A stretch of DNA of 64,000 bases from the NCBI GenBank assembly GCA_000004985.1, contig GG738902.1; one strand, written 5' to 3'. Of the stretch, positions 5,896 to 49,381 are shown one piece after another. The translations under genes and the position numbers were made by a program. The first letter of the stretch is position 1. Every line of letters starts with the position of its first letter. The notes beneath the pieces are model-generated. The model was not told where the DNA came from. It made no database searches and saw only the letters and a list, made by a program, of their open reading frames with translations. This DNA comes from Naegleria gruberi. Taxonomy: Eukaryota.

Positions 5896-8800
5896 ATGCC
5901 ACTACACCAAACTTTCATCTACACTGGGAAGCTACAACCAGACGAAACTAAACATACAACATTTCCAACAACAAGAACAATATCGCGGAATAGTCGAATT
6001 TCTTTCTCTTCATCAACTATAACCACAAATTTAATTATTTCAATTCTACTGCTAGCATTTATCACCTCTCTCATACAATCTCTATATTATCAGATAGTGT
6101 ATTCATCCAACAATGACAACAAACTTTATAGTCACACATTCTTTGTGAATGCTGCCACTACATGCTATGGTGTTGACAGCACGGATCCTAGTGTTTGCTC
6201 GGGTAATGGAAATTGTACCAGTAAGAATAATTGTGAGTGCAATGATGGATTTAGTGGAAACAAATGTCAAACAGAGACGGTGAAATGTTATGGTGTAGTA
6301 GATACTGATCCTACAGTATGTTCAGGTCATGGAAATTGCTCTAGTAAGAATAATTGTCTGTGTGATTCAGGGTACAGTGGTAACAAGTGTCAAACCTTTG
6401 ATGGTACTAGTTCGATATCGTGTTATGGAATCGATTCGACAGATAGTTCAGTTTGTAATTACAATGGTAATTGCACAGCAACGAATAATTGCGTTTGTAA
6501 TCAAGGATATAGTGGAAATCAGTGCCAAACATTGGATAGCTCTTTTAAATGTTATGGAGTTGACTCTACTGACGTTTCTGTTTGTAATGGAAATGGAAAT
6601 TGTACATCAACTAATAATTGTGTCTGCAAATCTGGTTACACTGGGAATCAATGTCAAAATGAAGATAGTTCATTTAAATGCTACGGGGTTGACTCGACAG
6701 ATATCTCTGTTTGTAGCGGAAATGGAAATTGTACAAGCTCAAACAATTGCGAATGCAAATCTGGTTATACTGGTAATCAATGTCAATCAATTGATAGCTC
6801 TTTCAAGTGTTATGGTGTTGATTCGATAGATATCTCTGTTTGCAATGGAAATGGTAATTGCACTAGTTCAAATAATTGTGTTTGTAAATCTGGTTACAGT
6901 GGAAATCAATGTCAAACCTATGATGGCGGTAATAGTGGTTCATTTAAATGCTATGGAGTTGATTCTAGTGATATCTCTGTTTGTAGTGGAAACGGTAACT
7001 GTACTTCTGCTAATAATTGTGAATGTAAGGCAGGTTATAGCGGCAATCAATGCCAAACCTTCTCTACCTCTTTTAAGTGTTATGGTGTTGATTCGACAGA
7101 TAGTTCAGTTTGTAATGGAAATGGCAATTGCACCTCCTCTAATAATTGCGAATGTAAATCTGGATACACAGGAAACCAATGTCAATCAATTGATAGCTCG
7201 TTCAAGTGTTATGGTGTTGATTCGATGGATGTCTCTGTTTGCAATGGAAATGGTAATTGCACTAGTTCAAACAACTGTGTTTGTAAATCTGGTTACAGTG
7301 GGAATCAATGTCAAAACAATGATGGCAGTAGCACCATTAAATGTTATGGTATTGATTCGACTGACCCATCAGTTTGCTCAGGTCATGGTATCTGTTCCTC
7401 AACCAACGACTGCCAATGTGAAAATGGTTACAGTGGAAATAAGTGTCAAACCTTTGCAAACGAAACATCTACTTTCAAATGTTATGGTGTAGATTCTTCG
7501 GATCCTACTGTTTGCTCTGGTAATGGAAACTGTACATCCACCAACAATTGCCAATGCCAATCAGGATTCAGTGGAAATAAGTGTCAAACTACAGTTAATT
7601 ATTGCTTTGGTTATGATGAAAATGATAACAATGTTTGTGGTGGTCCAGATCGAGGAAAATGTACATCTAACGATGTTTGTGAATGTAAGGGAAGCTACGT
7701 TGGTTACGATTGTGGTGCTTTTGTTTCAGACAAATCACTCATCAAAATAACCTCAAAATATTCAAAGATTCTAAGCACCAATACTGACATTAATTTCATA
7801 ACAATTAGTATTCCAAAGCTCACTAACAGCTACAAGGGAATTGAGAATAGACTCAAGAGTACTTTGGTGATTTTCAGCAGTAATGTTACTATTGATTATT
7901 CCACTACTGGAATGATTGAACAGTTTCAATTGTATAAGAACATGACACTTGGCGTCTACTCTCTCAATTTAACCATTGTTGATACTACTTATAACATTCA
8001 AGTTGCTGCTACTGTTGAGAGCTCAATATTTTCTATACTGACTCTTGAACAAACTACTCAAAGTGTGGATACCTTGACAGCAAAAGAAATTGCACAAGTT
8101 ACAAAGCAATTGAACCAAATTACAAACCAACAACAATTTATTTCTACTGTGGTTTCTACTTTGAAAGAGAATGTTAATAATTACACAATTGATGATGGTT
8201 TAGATTTGACTTCGTCACTATTAGATATTTCCAATGTCAAGTTGGATACTAAATCTAAACTGGGAATATCTGAAACCCTAAAATCATATGCTCAAAATAT
8301 GATCGAAAAGTTTGACAATTTCACAACAGAACAAGTCAAACCAGTTGCAATTAACATCGTTTCTGTTGCCTCAAATATTTTAAATCAATCTATATTTACT
8401 GAACCATCATCTAAATTTGTGGTTATCGGTAATTCTATTCAATCCGTTGAAAAGACACTTTCCCTTGTTACGATTGTTAATCCAACAGAAAATTTATCAA
8501 TTGAAACTTCGATGATTAAGGTTCTTCTCATTTCAAAATCAGAATACAAGAATTTACATACTATAGATAAGGATTATACTCTTAATCTTCCAGAATTGGG
8601 GTTTGAATATTCGTTTGGTTTGGTAAAATATGAAAATTACTTGACAGAAGATTTGCAAAACACAAGTTCAATTTCTGACATTTTGCAAGTGAGACCAATG
8701 TTGAATGGTGTTTTTAGCCCTCTCAGACATTTATCCACTCCATTCAATTTGACTTTCTCTATCAAACATTTCGGTGCGCCACCAAGTAATGAAACAGTTG

Positions 8801-41575: not shown

Positions 41576-43992
41576 TTACTCAAACTCCCTTGTAAATATT
41601 CCAGAAAGATCTTGTTCTGATAAAAAGGAACTACTCTCCCAAAATAGTGGATTCTCAAATCCTGTAATACCAACAGACGAGTAGTCTTCTGGTTGAGTAG
41701 GTGTAACTTCAATATTCAGTTGTGTATTTAGTGGAATGTCAATAGGAGTAGGTTGTACACTCACAACACGTCTAACTCTTATCAGAGACAAGTATTGTTC
41801 CATGTCTGCAAGAAGGTCCTTAAAGAAAAGCTCAACAAACTTGTATCGTTTTTTCATCAAATTAAAAGCTCTCATATCCTTCTCAAGAATATCGAAATAA
41901 TCAATTCCGTTATATCTGAAATCTGTACTTTGGCTTGAAATTAGTGTTTTGACAATTTGTAAATGCACATTGGTTGCCTTGGCTACACAGACAAGAGTTT
42001 CTATAGGGAAGAGTGGAAACCAAGCATGTTGCGTTATTTCTGTAATTTCCAAAGCTGCCTTCTCCATAATATCCCTAACAGTTGGATTGTGTGATTTAGA
42101 TAGAATTGAAATTCTCAGTGAGTTTGCAATTAGAGTAAATATTGGATCAACTAGTTCTTCATACTCAGGTCCTACAATTCACTTGTTCAGATATTTGTTT
42201 TATAATGAAACTTACCATATGAAAAACATGCAAGAGCAGGACTCTTTGTTGGAGTGTCTATCAATCCTTTGGCCACCTTTTTGATATTCTCCACACACAT
42301 TTGGACAACACTCCAAATTTCAAAACAATTTTCACTATTAACTTCTCTAGTCACTACACCGATCCATTCCTCTGGAAATTTATCCATTGTAAAGAAGCTA
42401 TAAATATCAGGCAATCTTCTGAGGAATTCTTTCAAGTCCAAACGATTCAAATCATCTCCCAATACATTGTTAAAATAAAATACAAGATTTTCCAAATTTC
42501 TCTCACAGTCTGTCATAGTAGCTCTCTTCTCCTCGCCACTGAGTTGCGTCTTGACATAGTACTGGAGAATTTGCATGTAGAATTTTGCATTTTCGTATCT
42601 TCCAACCCAGCCTTCATACGAGGCCAAATTACCATAAGTTGCTGCAATATGATAGCTTTGAATTTGGTCAAACATTTTAGAAAGTGCCTTTTTGGCTCTT
42701 TGAGCTGTCTTTTCTGCTAGCTCAGCGAGTCCATATCTACATTCACACAATGCTCTCACCGATAAGAAGAGAGGGAACATTTCCTTCTTGTTGCTCTTTT
42801 CTCCTTCGATATCATTTGGTGTTGTAATGTAATTTTCCAATTCTTCCTTGCTCACCAATGGACATCCATCACATGCAATATCAAAATAAAAGTCAATCAC
42901 ATTTCTCTTACTGAGATGACCAACTTCTTCCACATTATCACTATCGGAATCACTATTTTTTTCTGCAATATTATTGTTGGTGGTTGAATGGTATGGTTTG
43001 AATTTTGGATCATTCGAAACTACACCATCCTTTGGTTTGAATGAGGTAACTCCTTTCTTTTTCTTTCTCTTCTTTTTTTCCTCAGTTCCCTTGATTGCAT
43101 TCCTCTTTGATTCTCTATAAATACATTCCACAGATCGTTGTGTACATGCTGTACAACATGGCAATTTCTTATCTGTAATATTATGGTGAATTTTAAAATC
43201 AACAAATAATAAAATACCTACCACTATTAAGGATTTAAAATTAAAATGTTATTTAGATTATTTACATACCATTTTCTATTAAATAGTTAATAATATGAAG
43301 ATTAAAAACACATACCGATGCTGCTTTCTACAAGGCTCACAGGCAATTGGAAAGAATTCAGTATTATCGTCTGTTGCAGCTGTTTGATTTGGTGAGCCAG
43401 TCTTTTCGTTACCTTCTGAACCATTACTACTGCTACTACTCGATTGGCCATTAATAACATTAGTTGATAAATTAATATTTTGATTTGGAATAAATCCTCT
43501 ATTATTATTTACAAAATTCAAATATTCTTGTTGTCTTTGTTGGAAAAGCAATCCGAAACTGTTTGGATTCATTCCTCCCAATAATTGTTGCTGCATTAAT
43601 ATTTGTTGAAGACTTGGATTGTGATTATTCATCATTAATTGTTGATTTACAGGATTCATTGCAGGTTGTTGATTATTTACAGAAGAAATCGATGGATCTT
43701 GAACAGTTTCCCAACCAGAAGCAGAATTTCCTAAAGACTTTCCGAGTGATGATAAAAATCCACCATTATTTCCACTACTTGTATTATCATTACCTAAATT
43801 TGAAAGGAAATTCATTGATGATCCACTATTACTATTATTCATCATCATCATATTATTCATCAATACATTATTCATCATCAACTGGTGCTGAGACGTTGCC
43901 GAATAGCTTTGATTATTACTATTCATTTCAAACGTTTGTTTGGTGTTGTTATTTGTTGGTTCCGAGTTGTCTTGATGATTTAACGGACGCAT
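41576..43992 (-). CDS. Zn(II)2Cys6 (Gal4-type) transcription-factor-like protein. Minus-strand exons 43992..43316, 43275..43270 (6 nt), 43223..43222 (2 nt), 43172..42216 and 42171..41576. Introns are 40, 46, 49 and 44 nt.
   Basis: The spliced junction reads ...ACEPCRKQH R|K C|DKKLPCCTACTQRSVECIY, giving CX2CX6CX6CX2CX6C. Donors are GTATGT, GTATGT, GTAGGT and GTAAGT; acceptors are TAATAG, TAATAG, TTACAG and TTGTAG. The C-terminal half (LQIVKTL...GIDYFDILEKD) is paralogous to the gene at 44562..47128. Confidence 0.7.
43222..43223 (-). other. 2-nt microexon (TG) completing a Cys codon within the Zn2Cys6 gene.
   Basis: Flanked by CCTTAATAG| and |GTAGGTATTTT. A paralogous TG microexon is present at 45316..45317. 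Confidence 0.6.
43270..43275 (-). other. 6-nt microexon (AAAATG) within the Zn2Cys6 gene.
   Basis: Flanked by TTTAATAG| and |GTATGTAAA. Needed to complete the codons CGA-AAA-TG. Confidence 0.55.
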
Positions 43993-44561: not shown

Positions 44562-47128
44562 ATGAATTCGTCATCAACATCACCACAACAGGCTCCTCCT
44601 CAAGGCTTTGGAAGTTTTCCTTCCTCCCCTAACAATAACATGTATACACAGCCTCAGCAACAACAATATTCTTCCTATAATAATAGTTTAAATAGTAGTA
44701 ATAGTACTAATAACAACATGATGATGATGAATAGTGTCCACCATCATCAGCCTCTTCCTTCATCTCCTTATAATCAACATCATCATGTGGCATCTCAATC
44801 AAACACCTCACAACAGCAACAGTATTATGATAATAACAATAATTATCAGGAATATAATAGACCACCGAATAATAATAACATGAATCATTCATCATCGATG
44901 AATAATGGTACGATGATTTCACTTCCTAGTCAAAATTCCTCCTATCAGACGTCACCATCACAATATGGCAACAGTAATAACAATAACTTTATTTATAATA
45001 TTCCACCACCATCCACACCACAGCAACCACCACCTCAACAAAATTATCATAATGGAATGCAAGGAATGAGTAGTAGTTCATATCAATTTGCGAATAGTAA
45101 TGGAATGCACAATAGAATGAATAATCAAAATGTGTCACCACCCATGAATCAACAACAAAATCTCGAATCAAGTCCAGAAGAAAATTCGTCATCACCAAAT
45201 GCTGAGCAATTGGGAAATTCGGATTTTCATCCCATCGCCTGTATAAATTGCAGAAAGCAACACAAACAATGGTAAGTTTAGTTATATTTGGAATTAAATC
45301 GATAACATTTTATAGTGGTAAGTATTAAATAAGAGAAATTGATTATTTAATGTTTCGGATATATAATTTAAACCTATCAGATAAGAAATTACCAAGTTGT
45401 CAACGATGTATTTCGAAAGGTATAACTTGTGAATATAAAACGCCTAGAAGAATGAGATATCCAAATCAGTCGAAACAAAAACAACAGCAACAGTCAACTG
45501 AGGAACAGCAACAATCAGAACCAAAGAAGAAGAAAAAGAAAACCGACTCGAAAGATAACCTAACACCAAAATCAAACTCTCCTCTCGATCCAGAAAATGT
45601 TTGTGCTCCAAATACAACTCTCACTAGCAGATTCCCTCAAACTCTCTCAAAAAAGAATATTATTGATATTTATTATAGCATGATATGCGATCACTTTATA
45701 TTTATTGAAAAACCAGTATTGGAAAAGTATATTCTTTCCAAGAGTAATAGTGAAGATGTGGATGATTCAGAATTACCACTCAAGAAGGAAATGCAGACAT
45801 TCTTCTTCTCTGTGACAGCACTAGTGGAACAACGTATGGGAATGGGAGATTTATCTGAAAAATCAGCAAAGAAGGCTAGAGATTGTCTTTCTAAACTTTT
45901 TGATGAAATGAATAACTTTGTAGTTGCCTGTTCGTATGCAAATTTGGGATCATATGAGATTGGATCAGGACGAGTCAAACTATCCAGGTTCTATTTCCAT
46001 AATGCCAAGTTTTACTTTGAAAGTTTGGACGATTCTGAAAAGTCAAGGTTATCAGAGCATGAAAAGGCTCTCCAAAAATACTTGACATCAGTGGAAATTG
46101 TAAATGCAGATAATGATCTAGGAATTTCAGCCATGATACATGACATGCCAAAAGTTTTTCATTTCACCACAGGACATCACTTACCTCAAGAAATTGTTAA
46201 AGCAACTCAACAAGAGGTCAGTCCTTCGAATTGTTTGGACTATCTCAAGATTGTGGAAATGATTGCCTCGTACTTGAACAAGTATTTCAGAGGTATGGCC
46301 ACTAAAACTAGAGGAGAAAAGGAAATGGAAATGTATGACAAGGGTAGTAATCTCTGCCAAGGTTTACTAATGAACGGATTACGTGTAGGTGTCTTGACTA
46401 AGGCAGGGTATGGCAAGGATCTTATTGAAGAGTCTTCTTTGAGAATTACGTATGCGTCCGAGAGTGAATTTTTTCCATTCCTTCCTGTTATTGTAATTCC
46501 ACACGTTGCTCTCGCTGCCCGTATTCACTTACAAATTGTAAAAAAGATTGAAAATGGTACCAGACAAAATCATCAGAAAGGGCTCACTTTCCAAAATACC
46601 GTTGGACCTATTGATTATTTTGATATTCTGGCAAAAGATTACAGATCACTCATTATTCTCTCTAAAAGATTTAAGAGAGTGTCGGTATGTTACGGTTCTC
46701 TCCTTGATGAAATTAAAGAGATTTTAGGTAGGAGAGTTGAAGCTCAGCAAAACAACGACACCACCTCGACAAATAACTCTAATACTGTTACTACCCCAAT
46801 TGCAGATGATGCACTCTTACAGCCACTTTCCTTAGACTCTTCCAGCCTGCCTCCACTGTCCTTCCTTCTAGGTTCTATGAATGATAATCCTTCACTACCT
46901 CAATCTTCAAGCTCTCAAAAATCAACCCTTGATGGATATGCTTCCAACAATTTACAACAAAGCATTTTCAATTCAATAATTCAATCTCCAATCAAATCAC
47001 CCTCACAACAACAAGAGTTGTACTTTGCTGATCCATTCTTTACACACGAAGATTTACAACAAATATTTTCTCCACATACGTATGGCGATTTTGAGGATGT
47101 ATCAGAATATAGTTTTAATGTGAAATAA
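44562..47128 (+). CDS. Zn(II)2Cys6 transcription-factor-like paralogue. Exons 44562..45271, 45316..45317 (2-nt microexon) and 45381..47128.
   Basis: Exon 1 ends ...FHPIACINCRKQHKQ + tg. Intron 1 is 45272..45315 (GTAAGT...TTTTATAG). Microexon is TG. Intron 2 is 45318..45380 (GTAAGT...CTATCAG). Exon 3 starts ATAAGAAATTACCAAGTTGT. The spliced protein reads ACINCRKQHKQCDKKLPSCQRCISKGITCEY. The N-terminus is N/Q-rich; the C-terminus is homologous to the minus-strand paralogue. Confidence 0.7.
45316..45317 (+). other. 2-nt microexon (TG).
   Basis: TTTTATAG|TG|GTAAGTATTAAAT. Without it the zinc-cluster frame cannot be joined. Confidence 0.6.
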
Positions 47129-47154: not shown

Positions 47155-47493
47155 CTATTGTTCTTCCACGTATTTGGCTACATATTCAGGATAGCATGGC
47201 AATCTATCTCCTAGCATAACGTGGTGATTACCAGTTTGAGTTTCAGCTGTTGGTTCAAAGACTGGTTCCAAAGGCTTTTCCACAAATACTTCGTGATCTT
47301 TCTTAACTGGTAATTCTTCCTTCTTTTCTTCAACAACTGGTGTTTCTGTAATTGTTTCTTCCTTCTTTTCTTCAACTGGTGCTTCTACAACTTGAGTAGT
47401 TTCCACAGAAATTGGTGGTACTTGTTCAATTGAACAAATAAATGGAATTGTTTCTTGAATTAACTTTTTACAATTTTCAACTTGATAATTCAA
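47155..47493 (-). CDS. Acidic E/P/V-rich ORF (112 aa). Either a separate small gene or a C-terminal extension of the upstream ankyrin/coiled-coil gene via an unresolved frameshift or splice.
   Basis: It overlaps the stop of 47477..48148 by 17 nt in a different frame. No canonical intron or single-base homopolymer change joins them. Confidence 0.25.
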   Translation of the reverse strand: MNYQVENCKKLIQETIPFICSIEQVPPISVETTQVVEAPVEEKKEETITETPVVEEKKEELPVKKDHEVFVEKPLEPVFEPTAETQTGNHHVMLGDRLPCYPEYVAKYVEEQ

Positions 47494-49381
47494 TCAGGTA
47501 AATTCCAATTTGAACTTTTTTAGGAATAAATTGTTGTAATTCAACAGTTTCGTTTCCAAGGCTCTCCATGATTTTTCTTAATAATTCATAAATTTCAATA
47601 ATTTCACTTAATTCATCCTTATTTAACAATTGAATGTCAGTTAAATATTCTTGATTCAAATATGTTTTGATAAATTCATCCAATACTATTAACTTCTCTT
47701 CCAATTCTTGAATATATTTGGTCAATTTCATTAAAAAATTCTCCGATTTAATGCTTTCTACCATACAAGTCATGTTTAACTTTAGTTCATCAACTTGTGA
47801 ACTTTCTTGTTCAAGTTTCAATTCATTAGCATGTTCAAAACAATTCTTTAACTTTTCACAAATTTCCAAATATTCTTTTTGAAATTCATTTTCTAATACA
47901 GTACATAAAACCTTAATTGCATTGATTTGTGAATTGGATTGAGTTTCTTCTTGTCTTTCAATATTTGTTTCTTGTGTTTCGTCTTGTTCTTTAATATTTT
48001 CGTCTTGTTTTTCGAGAGTTTCTTGATTTTCATCATGTTTTTCCTCTTGTTGTTCGAGAGTTTCTTGGTTTTCATCATGTTTTTCAAGTGGTTCTTGTTT
48101 TTCAAGAATTTCTTTCTTAATTTTATCTTTTTCAACTTTTTCATTCAATTCCTTCTTAATTTTGGAAATTTCCTTTCCGTTGACTTTCCATAAATTGTTA
48201 ATTTTAATATTTGGTGATTGAAGTAATAATTTAACAATTTCTAAACGTCCTTTTTCACATGCAATATGTAATGGAGACTAATAAATATTTAAAAATGTTG
48301 TAATTATTATTACTTACTTCCTATTATGGTAATGTTTAAAATAAGTATTAAATACAAACCATCTAAATAATAATGTAAAATATTTTAAATATTTAATTCT
48401 TACATGCTACGAGGAAATAATTAATAAATTAATTATTAATTTACATACTTCCTAAAATAGATAAATAATTTAATTGGTTAATTACTCACTTTCTAATAAC
48501 AAAGTTGGCAAATTAATTTCAATATTTAATAATACTAACTTCCTATTAAAAAAATTAATATTAAATATTAAAAATACTAACAATCTAAAAAAATGTAAAT
48601 ATTTAAAATTGTTTAAAAACTTACAACTCTCTAAAACAAATATACACGTAATTTAATTAGTAGAGACTTACTTGCTAATAAAAATATTAATTTAAGATTA
48701 TATTACTTAAATTACATACTTCCTAATAAGGAACTTGTTCATAAATAAAGAATTTAATACTTACTCCCTAATAATATTAACATTAAATAGTTATAAGTGA
48801 AATACTAACTTTCTAATAAATTATTTTATAAATAACTAAGTATTAAATACTTACATGCTAATAAAATGCTAATTTAATACAAAATTACCAAATTTAGAAT
48901 ACTTACATACTAAAAATAGTATTATTTTTATATTTTTTAATATTAAATTACTTACAGTCTGAAAATATTATTATTACAATGCTAGCAACACTTACAAACT
49001 AATAGCATTAAATATAAATAATTAATTATTCAATTCCTTACATACTAATTAATTATTTAGTATTTTACAATATTTCCTTAAATACTTACTTTCTACAATC
49101 ATACCCATTTAGATCTTATTAAACAATTGATATTCTACTCACATACTACTCAATTTTAAATATTTATAATGTTAATATTAAATAGTACTTACTCCCTTAT
49201 TCACATCAAGTCCTCCACAATTCAACAATAACTTGACAATTTCCAAATGTCCCCTCTCACAAGCCATGTACAACAATGTCTTATTCCGATCAGATTCATT
49301 TACCTTCGTTGGCTTGAAATACTTTTTAAACTCGGCAACGTTTCCACTATTTGCAGCATCTACAAGATGAGGAGAGAGCAT
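47477..49381 (-). CDS. Ankyrin-repeat plus acidic coiled-coil protein. First exon 49381..49193, a 915-nt microexon/mini-intron array at 49192..48278, and a downstream exon 48277..47477.
   Basis: Upstream exon reads ...TLLYMACERGHLEIVKLLLNCGGLDVNKG. Downstream exon reads SPLHIACEKGRLEIVKLLLQSPNIKINNLWKVNGKEISKIKKELNEKVEKDK..., in frame with ORF 47477..48148, then an E/K-rich helix. Confidence 0.65.
48278..49192 (-). other. Array of 20 tandem mini-introns (about 37-50 nt) separated by 19 microexons of 3 nt (one alternatively 6 nt).
   Basis: The minus strand reads GGA|GTAAGTAC...GAGTAG|TAT|GTGAGTAG...TTGTAG|AAA|GTAAGTAT...TAATTAG|TAT|GTAAGG...TATTAG|TTT|GTAAGTG...TTTTCAG|ACT|GTAAGTAA...TTTTTAG|TAT|GTAAGTAT...TTATTAG|CAT|GTAAGTAT...TTATTAG|AAA|GTTAGTAT...TTATTAG|GGA|GTAAGTAT...TTATTAG|GAA|GTATGTAA...TTATTAG|CAA|GTAAGTCT...TTTTAG|AGA|GTTGTAAGT...TTTTTAG|ATT|GTTAGTAT...TTAATAG|GAA|GTTAGTAT...TTATTAG|AAA|GTGAGTAA...TTTTAG|GAA|GTATGTAA...CTCGTAG|CAT|GTAAGA...TTATTTAG|ATG|GTTTGTAT...CATAATAG|GAA|GTAAGTAA...TTATTAG|TCTCCA. 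None of the 3-nt units is a stop codon. Confidence 0.7.

Follow-up and report, generated by a model that had tools for sequence, protein, structure and literature searches.

An array of 20 predicted mini-introns and 19 putative microexons in an ankyrin gene of Naegleria gruberi

We analyzed a 64,000-nucleotide (nt) stretch of contig GG738902.1 from the genome of Naegleria gruberi NEG-M (assembly GCA_000004985.1), referred to here as the window. The window is gene-dense, has a G+C content (GC) of 33.5%, and holds the genes NAEGRDRAFT_73137 to 73155. On its minus strand, the two exons of a predicted ankyrin gene are separated by a gap of 915 nt (49192..48278), and this gap is made up of 20 consecutive GT...AG units together with the 19 short spacers that lie between them. 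The GC of this array region is ~20%; it holds only short, AT-rich chance open reading frames (ORFs), and a search of both of its strands against Rfam matched no family. The window also contains two divergently oriented genes for Zn2Cys6 zinc-cluster proteins, referred to here as controls A and B, which carry shorter chains of mini-introns.

The units of the array are 37 to 50 nt long (mean, 42.9), giving a period of 40 to 53 nt. All 20 begin with GT and end with AG, 19 of the 20 have a G at position +5, and a pyrimidine precedes the terminal AG in every unit (TAG in 19, CAG in 1); the donor consensus is GTAAGTAWT, and the acceptor consensus is TTATTAG. The original prediction, made from the letters of the window, had described this region as 19 repetitions of a YAG acceptor, exactly 3 nt (in one unit alternatively 6 nt), and a donor. 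The array of 20 GT...AG units and 19 spacers is real, and 18 of the spacers (listed 5' to 3' along the minus strand in Table 1) are 3 nt long; spacer 12 is better read as 6 nt. Taking it as AGA would leave the poor donor GTTGTA, and the preferable reading, AGAGTT, leaves the consensus donor GTAAGT. All 19 spacer lengths are multiples of three (3n). As the original prediction had also pointed out, none of the spacers is a stop codon, an absence that carries little weight alone, as local composition gives it a P of about 0.12.

The architecture of the array and its departure from randomness were confirmed by comparison with shuffled sequence and with the remainder of the window. In 2,000 dinucleotide-preserving shuffles of the region, the junction motif YAG-N3-GTNNGN occurred 0.22 times on average and never more than 3 times, compared to 18 occurrences in the actual sequence; for the looser motif YAG-N3-GT, the same shuffles gave a mean of 2.06 and a maximum of 8, compared to 19 observed. 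Inside the array, no good donor follows an acceptor at a distance of 0, 1, 2, 4, 5, or 7 to 9 nt; outside it, all acceptor-donor spacer lengths in the window are about equally rare. Across both strands of the window, the junction motif has seven further matches, all of them isolated and in coding-like sequence, and none with AT-rich, intron-like flanks.

The units share with short U2-type GT-AG introns their donors, their pyrimidine-AG acceptors, their length range, and the need for their removal if the frame is to stay open: in-frame stops are present in 16 of the 20, and the remaining 4 have lengths that are not multiples of three. As originally predicted, their sizes match those of introns elsewhere in the window that are validated by reading frame (40, 44, 44, 46, 49, 56, and 63 nt), the donors of which are GTAAGT, GTATGT, and GTAGGT. 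Because every unit is 3n-spaced, any subset of microexons keeps the frame, and the earlier statement that the flanking exons stay in frame with zero or all of the triplets only was wrong. N. gruberi introns are small, and we infer that they are recognized across the intron. Most or all of the 19 microexons are probably included in the messenger RNA (mRNA); we infer from the DNA both that the internal sites of the array are used and how many of the microexons are retained.

By analogy, the two zinc-cluster genes provide the strongest argument that the array consists of real introns whose microexons are retained. In control A, which corresponds to the public N. gruberi protein P0239, an apparent 92-nt intron (43315-43224, minus strand) is part of a chain of mini-introns enclosing a 6-nt exon and a 2-nt exon. 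Inclusion of the two tiny exons yields ACEPCRKQHRKCDKKLPCCTACTQRSVECIY, which is the canonical Zn2Cys6 cluster CX2CX6CX6CX2CX6C, with a score of 35.9 bits against the Pfam family Zn_clus. Without the 6-nt exon, the score is 20.2 bits, below the gathering score of 21; leaving out the 2-nt exon shifts the frame straight into a stop. The public protein includes the residues of both exons. Orthologues in N. lovaniensis (L122), in a Naegleria metagenome from the Joint Genome Institute (L123), and in a Naegleria Logan assembly (L124) are uninterrupted ORFs that encode CRKQHR[KR]C[SD][KR] contiguously, the N. lovaniensis DNA reading cat aga aaa tgt tca aaa. The product of control B reads IACINCRKQHKQCDKKLPSC... 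(...CRKQHKQCDKKLPSCQRC...); this gene has the same 2-nt exon, TG, as control A, and its omission leads to a frameshift and a stop. Judged by reading frame, domain conservation, and orthologue collinearity, N. gruberi demonstrably carries mini-intron chains with 2- to 6-nt exons that require inclusion. With these two genes, single-codon exons become the best supported of the three readings that the original prediction had offered, and for the array itself inclusion is an extrapolation from them.

As a separate observation on P0239, 63 nt in its N-terminal part (~43830-43900, minus strand), encoding SQHQLMMNNVLMNNMMMMNNS, are removed in the public model as an in-frame intron, and an uninterrupted ORF reads through them; this intron call looks doubtful.

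The zinc-cluster genes also differ in where their introns lie. The orthologue of the second paralogue has a single ~136-nt intron after ...QCDK in N. lovaniensis (L122, ~7828-8100) and two introns around a 12-nt exon, CAATGCGATAAG, in the Logan Naegleria assembly (L124, ~7851-8200; SRR29240419). With the Cys codon counted as nt 1 to 3, introns fall after -5, 2, and 4 in gene A, after 2 and 4 in gene B, before -3 and after 9 in L124, and after 9 in N. lovaniensis. Five intron positions are thus found within about 15 nt of a coding sequence that is collinear in all of these genes; it follows that packed introns arise or move beside existing ones. On this sequence evidence, the spot is a local hot spot of intron gain or movement that leaves the protein unaltered. 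Tandem duplication of an intron together with an exon fails as an account of this locus, because the mRNA would gain nucleotides.

The array could instead be one long intron containing a decayed minisatellite, in which the outermost donor (49192) and acceptor (48278) alone are used and the inner motifs are functionless sequence inherited from the repeat. Intron-shaped minisatellites do exist, as the metagenome families L097, L071/L083, and L064 show, and a product with zero microexons scores well as an ankyrin protein. In addition, the repeats across exon-intron boundaries in the amphioxus "mirages" leave normal splicing undisturbed (PMC3087553). We nevertheless consider a single long intron quite unlikely. 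The introns of a related heterolobosean measure 9 to 95 base pairs (bp) (PMC11589745), so an intron of 915 nt would be far out of range; it would also be roughly 10 to 20 times as long as any other intron recognized in the window. Under intron definition, moreover, 20 strong decoy donor/acceptor pairs would be expected to be used.

The sequence of the units also fails to behave as a repeat. Tandem Repeats Finder detected no array with a period near 45 nt. Once the splice signals had been stripped, the unit bodies were barely more similar to one another than mononucleotide shuffles (z of ~3.3 in global and 4.0 in local comparisons), a small margin that could reflect the AT-rich dinucleotide structure, and adjacent units were no closer than distant ones (z of 1.4). 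A direct-repeat search placed the repeats on the junction core, the 72 to 80% identity being mostly due to the splice signals. Since Tandem Repeats Finder, the pairwise body alignments, and the direct-repeat search revealed no convincing unit homology beyond this core, we rejected a tandem-repeat explanation. The bodies are near random, yet GT is kept in 20 of 20 units, AG in 20 of 20, and 3n length in 19 of 19 spacers; neutral decay should have broken the signals and shifted the spacings by insertions and deletions, just as the lengths of the bodies changed. The minisatellite reading of the original prediction may still hold for the origin of the array, by duplication of units, but not for an inert repeat.

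What has been preserved in the array can be compared with what has drifted. G occupies ~5% of intron-body positions, and the invariant G positions of the splice sites are therefore far from mutational equilibrium. The triplets are A-rich rather than T-rich, unlike the intron bodies, and their first position is G or C in 8 of 19 cases, compared to 11.5% in the bodies (P = 7e-4). The intron bodies have drifted to near-randomness in both sequence and length, with the signals kept. Concerted evolution does not account for this contrast, because it would have homogenized the bodies too. Purifying selection on splice sites that are in use would be the simplest explanation of intact signals next to diverged bodies, because each retained unit brings a stop or a frameshift.

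Two other sources of the units were considered and rejected. Duplication of exon segments found no backing in local alignments of the chain introns against the flanking exons, of which 2 of 40 reached p<0.05, the rate expected by chance. Membership in an introner family was rejected after a blastn-short search of the 20 units against the masked 64-kilobase (kb) window and 50 kb of other Naegleria DNA, which returned only AT-rich chance matches of 11 to 19 nt and an orthologous match in the metagenome contig L001, introduced below.

Recursive splicing, the remaining reading in the original prediction, would remove the gap stepwise through ratchet points and leave nothing in the mRNA. The periodic acceptor-donor pairs of the array superficially resemble the ratchet points of Drosophila, in which an acceptor and a donor are juxtaposed (PMC8605326). 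In both cases acceptor and donor motifs adjoin within one apparent gap, implying ordered, stepwise action of the spliceosome. Unlike ratchet points, which have a zero-length exon, lie in very long introns, and contribute nothing to the mRNA, the Naegleria AG and GT are always 3 nt apart in a gap of 915 nt. AG directly abutting GT occurs 0 times in the array, and 0 of the 19 triplets begin with GT, so that no 5' splice site would be regenerated; a ligated triplet would therefore be locked into the mRNA, to be lost only by skipping or by use of the outermost sites. The host "intron" is also less than 1 kb long, not tens of kb. Recursive splicing is thus extremely improbable here, and this part of the original prediction falls away.

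If every microexon were included, the predicted product of the ankyrin gene would be 349 amino acids long, would carry YKYFTYHKGEQRVIEKEHME as an insert in the loop that joins ankyrin repeats 2 and 3, and would contain AATAAGGGATATAAATATTTTACTTATCATAAAGGAGAACAAAGAGTTATTGAAAAAGAACATATGGAATCTCCATT. A direct join of exon 1 to exon 2 would read ...AATAAGGGA followed by TCTCCATTACAT, i.e., AATAAGGGATCTCCATT. At most, then, the microexons contribute 20 of the 349 residues of this predicted ankyrin/coiled-coil protein.

Several observations weigh against retention of the whole chain. The Pfam Ank_2 score is 63.3 bits with no microexons, 63 to 64 bits with four, and 57.7 bits with all 20 codons; as predicted from sequence, the ankyrin domain is formed without need of the insert, and the Ank_2 profile does not discriminate between the isoforms. 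An argument from loop length, by which zero inclusion would leave a repeat 4 residues short, was dropped for the Naegleria gene on account of these scores, which show no preference. Some donors of the array are weak (GTTAGT three times, GTTTGT, GTAAGA, and GTAAGG), and 1 of the 19 microexons ends in G, unlike the context of most ordinary donors in the window. The validated control chains hold two to three introns, not 20. The public gene model, P0006, follows a different path of 12 introns and inserts FTYHFISIKLGQEEME, which can be reproduced only if single units are mixed with fused ones of 86 to 194 nt; this path suggests an ab initio guess, and the disagreement makes any structure of the gene provisional. 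Finally, a transcript-derived protein for the ankyrin gene was not found in the protein collection searched, and the end of the gene in NEG-M raises doubts that are taken up below.

Part of this evidence would also fit combinatorial alternative splicing, in which the internal sites are functional and their stochastic or regulated use yields in-frame isoforms with 0 to 20 residues in the loop. With all spacers being 3n, the frame survives whichever subset is used; the Ank_2 score does not favor either 0 or 4 inserted residues; there are several weak donors among the internal ones; and skipping one microexon would create an intron of ~90 nt, within the range of intron sizes seen in the window. 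We regard this as unlikely: skipping of the 2-nt exon would be lethal to the control ORFs, where the nearest sites are evidently paired reliably.

A single related sequence was found for the ankyrin gene, a metagenome contig of the European Nucleotide Archive from a related Naegleria (L001), with ~92% protein identity; the searched collection contained no orthologue from other Naegleria species. The original prediction had proposed a comparison with related species. This contig does keep the last GAA exon and both of its flanking splice sites, but the contig ends 1.3 units into the array, and the sole change in the covered part is a 3-nt deletion within intron 20. Farther downstream, near ~47477-47500 (minus strand), NEG-M is 11 nt shorter than L001 (positions 830-880), which produces a premature TGA; beyond this TGA the frame stays open (KLIQETIPFICSIEQVPP...) and matches the L001 protein, P0007. 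Going by these sequences, the NEG-M allele may be truncated, mis-sequenced, or decaying, as in an early pseudogene. The E/K/Q-rich stretch EKHDENQETLEQQE... of exon 2 is encoded, at 47939-48114, by tandem repeats (21, 30, 33, and 42 nt) that are in frame but imperfect, and the copy content of this stretch differs in L001.

If the NEG-M copy is now a pseudogene, the array would be a relic in a dying gene, once functional and with signals that are no longer under selection. The 11 nt missing near 47480-47500, with the premature TGA and the open frame behind it, fit this idea, as does the absence from the searched collection of both an orthologue in other Naegleria and a transcript-derived protein. 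We judge it very unlikely. Both exons and each of the 40 splice sites are intact, the 11-nt difference could be a sequencing error or mark a genuinely shorter C terminus, and the idea concerns the present function of the structure rather than its nature.

Table 1. Coordinates of the ankyrin exons, the predicted mini-introns and microexons of the array, and the zinc-cluster controls in the window
Feature	Coordinates	Strand	Length	Sequence features	Following microexon
Exon 1	49193..49381	-	63 codons	MLSPH...GGLDVNKG, ends in phase 0; public model P0006, "predicted protein"	
Whole array	48278..49192	-		20 mini-introns, 19 microexons	
Intron 1	49146..49192	-	47 nt	GTAAGT...TAG	TAT 49143-49145
Intron 2	49093..49142	-	50 nt	GTGAGT...TAG	AAA 49090-49092
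Intron 3	49045..49089	-	45 nt	GTAAGT...TAG	TAT 49042-49044
Intron 4	48999..49041	-	43 nt	GTAAGG...TAG	TTT 48996-48998
Intron 5	48959..48995	-	37 nt	GTAAGT...CAG	ACT 48956-48958
Intron 6	48910..48955	-	46 nt	GTAAGT...TAG	TAT 48907-48909
Intron 7	48858..48906	-	49 nt	GTAAGT...TAG	CAT 48855-48857
Intron 8	48813..48854	-	42 nt	GTAAGT...TAG	AAA 48810-48812
Intron 9	48768..48809	-	42 nt	GTTAGT...TAG	GGA 48765-48767
Intron 10	48723..48764	-	42 nt	GTAAGT...TAG	GAA 48720-48722
Intron 11	48675..48719	-	45 nt	GTATGT...TAG	CAA 48672-48674
Intron 12	48631..48671	-	41 nt	GTAAGT...TAG	AGA 48628-48630, better AGAGTT 48625-48630
Intron 13	48585..48627	-	43 nt, or 40 nt from 48624	Donor GTTGTA, or GTAAGT from 48624	ATT 48582-48584
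Intron 14	48543..48581	-	39 nt	GTTAGT...TAG	GAA 48540-48542
Intron 15	48493..48539	-	47 nt	GTTAGT...TAG	AAA 48490-48492
Intron 16	48452..48489	-	38 nt	GTGAGT...TAG	GAA 48449-48451
Intron 17	48407..48448	-	42 nt	GTATGT...TAG	CAT 48404-48406
Intron 18	48363..48403	-	41 nt	GTAAGA...TAG	ATG 48360-48362
Intron 19	48321..48359	-	39 nt	GTTTGT...TAG; 3' part conserved in L001	GAA 48318-48320, conserved in L001
Intron 20	48278..48317	-	40 nt	GTAAGT...TAG; conserved in L001 except 3-nt deletion	
Exon 2	47477..48277	-		SPLHIACEKGRLEIVKLLLQ..., ankyrin repeat, then E/K/Q-rich coiled-coil-like region; TGA 47477-47479	
Control A, Zn2Cys6 gene (P0239)	43173..43315	-		Three mini-introns, 6-nt and 2-nt exons	
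Control A, first intron	43276-43315	-	40 nt		AAAATG 43270-43275
Control A, second intron	43224-43269	-	46 nt		TG 43222-43223
Control A, third intron	43173-43221	-	49 nt		
Control B, divergently oriented Zn2Cys6 paralogue	45272..45380	+			
Control B, first intron	45272-45315	+	44 nt		TG 45316-45317
Control B, second intron	45318-45380	+	63 nt		

Under our preferred reading, that of included microexons, the gap would consist of 20 genuine U2-type spliceosomal mini-introns that are recognized by intron definition and removed one by one. In line with what the control genes demand, each donor would be joined to the branch site and acceptor that lie closest downstream. U1 base-pairs with exon positions -3 to -1, and the first nucleotides of an exon are contacted from the acceptor side. 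With only 3 nt between an acceptor and the next donor, adjacent introns would not be engaged simultaneously and would have to be removed in succession. The default product would keep all of the microexons, 18 of 3 nt and 1 of 6 nt; as skipping is in frame, some length heterogeneity would be possible and harmless. The array is probably old and would have grown by repeated local multiplication of an intron with, or beside, a codon, purifying selection keeping every GT, every AG, and the 3n spacing while the bodies drifted.

The original prediction had also raised the question of whether the motif recurs. Within the window, only the seven isolated matches mentioned above were found. A scan of metagenomes for three consecutive GTAAGT...YAG-NNN units matched at least 120 contigs, most of which were satellites or low-complexity sequence of the (GTAA)n type with a stop codon as the "triplet." This bare pattern was rejected as evidence of recurrence, as it also gave at least 120 matches in prokaryotic genomes. 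Stricter criteria (a chain of four or more units, four or more distinct triplets, and no stop triplets) retained 7 of the 120 metagenome loci and 0 of the 120 prokaryotic control loci, among the matches listed. These analogues, which are known from DNA alone, were chosen partly for their stop-free triplets, a property that is therefore not independent evidence.

One of the analogues lies in another ankyrin gene. In a eukaryotic contig of 17% GC (L003, Ga0207864_1037532, 1024-1425), a 29-codon exon is followed by five clearly paralogous introns of 35 to 44 nt. The one-codon exons between them, AAA, TGG, AAT, and AGT, encode K, W, N, and S, giving ...NAKN-K-W-N-S-TPLH..., and the 29 residues plus these four codons make up a canonical 33-residue ankyrin repeat. 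The position of the chain within the ankyrin repeat is the same as in the Naegleria array, and where the contig stops, a GTAAGT donor again closes the following repeat. A protein search with this locus returned generic ankyrin matches, none of them near-identical or transcript-derived. A second analogue, from a soil contig of 30% GC (L054, Ga0193713_1068682, 59-760), has at least 11 consecutive pyrimidine-rich introns of 51 to 68 nt, each followed by exactly 3 nt (ATA, ATA, AAT, AAA, GAG, AGA, AGT, ACT, AAA, and AAA), with a normal exon afterward.

Three further loci, L097 (1019-3350), L071 (7190-7750), and L083 (minus strand, 243-840), are intron-shaped minisatellites of 33, 10, and 11 units, respectively, that are 67 to 77% alike. 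L071 and L083 represent one unit family, and L071 carries fungal-looking genes. In all three, conservation is lowest in the 3-nt spacer (majority fraction, 0.4 to 0.7, compared to 0.8 to 0.99 for most intron columns), and adjacent units often share a triplet, for example, GAT five times or AGA three times. From their sequence, this sharing bears the hallmark of a unit of one codon plus one intron that was duplicated in tandem, and these arrays appear to be younger. Apart from these loci, the minus strand of L063 (~1005-1190) contains GTAAGT...TAG units of 19 to 20 nt spaced by 3 or 6 nt, with TAG as some of the spacers; this run is either a satellite or a chain of mini-introns of nucleomorph or ciliate size. 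Some genes of Acrasis kona are also candidates for a chain architecture (PMC11589745).

Two models for the origin of the Naegleria array can be drawn from these analogies. Repeated tandem duplication of a codon-plus-intron unit would explain the strict 3-nt register and is what the younger metagenome arrays appear to display. Serial local gain of introns into preexisting codons could have built the array as well; for this process, the zinc-cluster locus provides a demonstrated case and L003 a suggestive one. It is possible, and we propose it tentatively as somewhat doubtful, that chains with one-codon or 2-nt exons are a recurrent, undescribed architecture of short-intron eukaryotes that arises from a local intron-multiplying process. 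Such a process would place new introns within a few nt of existing ones, usually with the coding sequence unchanged. Circumstantial support for recurrence comes from the intron positions in the zinc-cluster genes, the introns at five consecutive codon boundaries in L003, and the at least 11 units in L054.

Duplication as a source of such structures has precedents. The origin of introns and minisatellites from tandem duplication is attributed to Zhuo et al. 2007 in a later paper that cites their work (PMC3488318). In the amphioxus mirages, units are 81 to 100% identical and subject to concerted evolution, and internal sites are largely unused or cryptic (PMC3087553). Like the introns of tandem arrays, every Naegleria unit carries a donor and an acceptor, and a boundary-spanning duplication is a plausible origin; unlike young tandem arrays and mirages, the Naegleria units are no longer recognizably similar and have kept all of their signals and the frame.

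Other known systems share individual features with the array. The micro-exon genes (MEGs) of schistosomes have introns of up to 5 kb and exons of variable size; they encode secreted proteins, their coding region consists mostly of microexons, and they generate protein variation. Their exons of 3 to 81 bp are regularly interspersed with introns (PMC10526429). Like MEGs, the Naegleria array has many consecutive symmetric (3n) short exons, the skipping of which is frame-safe. Unlike those of MEGs, its introns are ~43 nt long and 18 of its 19 exons are exactly one codon, and the inserted chain has an ordinary exon on either side, in a gene for a predicted intracellular-type ankyrin/coiled-coil protein. 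Isolated 3-nt exons occur in Drosophila hth and human MAP4K5, and a 1-nt exon occurs in Fusarium CYP621A (PMC7392893, PMC8632122, PMC12940212). These cases resemble the present one in that exons of 1 to 3 nt can be spliced and are needed for the correct protein; theirs are single and lie between ordinary introns, whereas Naegleria has an array. Introners form families of nearly identical introns that are scattered over many genes. They are similar in that introns multiply within a genome, and they differ in that the Naegleria units have no copies in the 64-kb window or in 50 kb of other Naegleria DNA. A full-text literature search aimed at this architecture found no description of single-codon-exon arrays, nor of such a feature in Naegleria. 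The structure is extreme and apparently undescribed, combining microexons with duplicated introns in a way that none of these systems matches.

Taken at face value, the array has consequences for how genes are annotated. Gene callers mis-model such chains or thread them arbitrarily, the 12-intron path of P0006 being an example, and exons of 3 nt give spliced aligners nothing to anchor on, which may cause the architecture to be missed systematically. The locus would also provide a rare in situ view of intron multiplication, with 20 introns at one locus and species-variable positions at its neighbor. Current splicing models hold that room is needed between a donor and the preceding acceptor. If such a recurrent architecture is real, intron definition by itself lets the Naegleria spliceosome resolve exons as short as 2 nt, and the 20-intron array is an extreme case in which up to 2^19 in-frame isoforms could be encoded. 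Its 19 consecutive 3-nt exons, together with the 2-nt exons of the controls, would set a lower limit of exon size for intron-defined splicing. Such an array would force strictly ordered removal of its introns, and an amoeba that can be cultured would thereby allow direct tests of splicing order and of steric exclusion.

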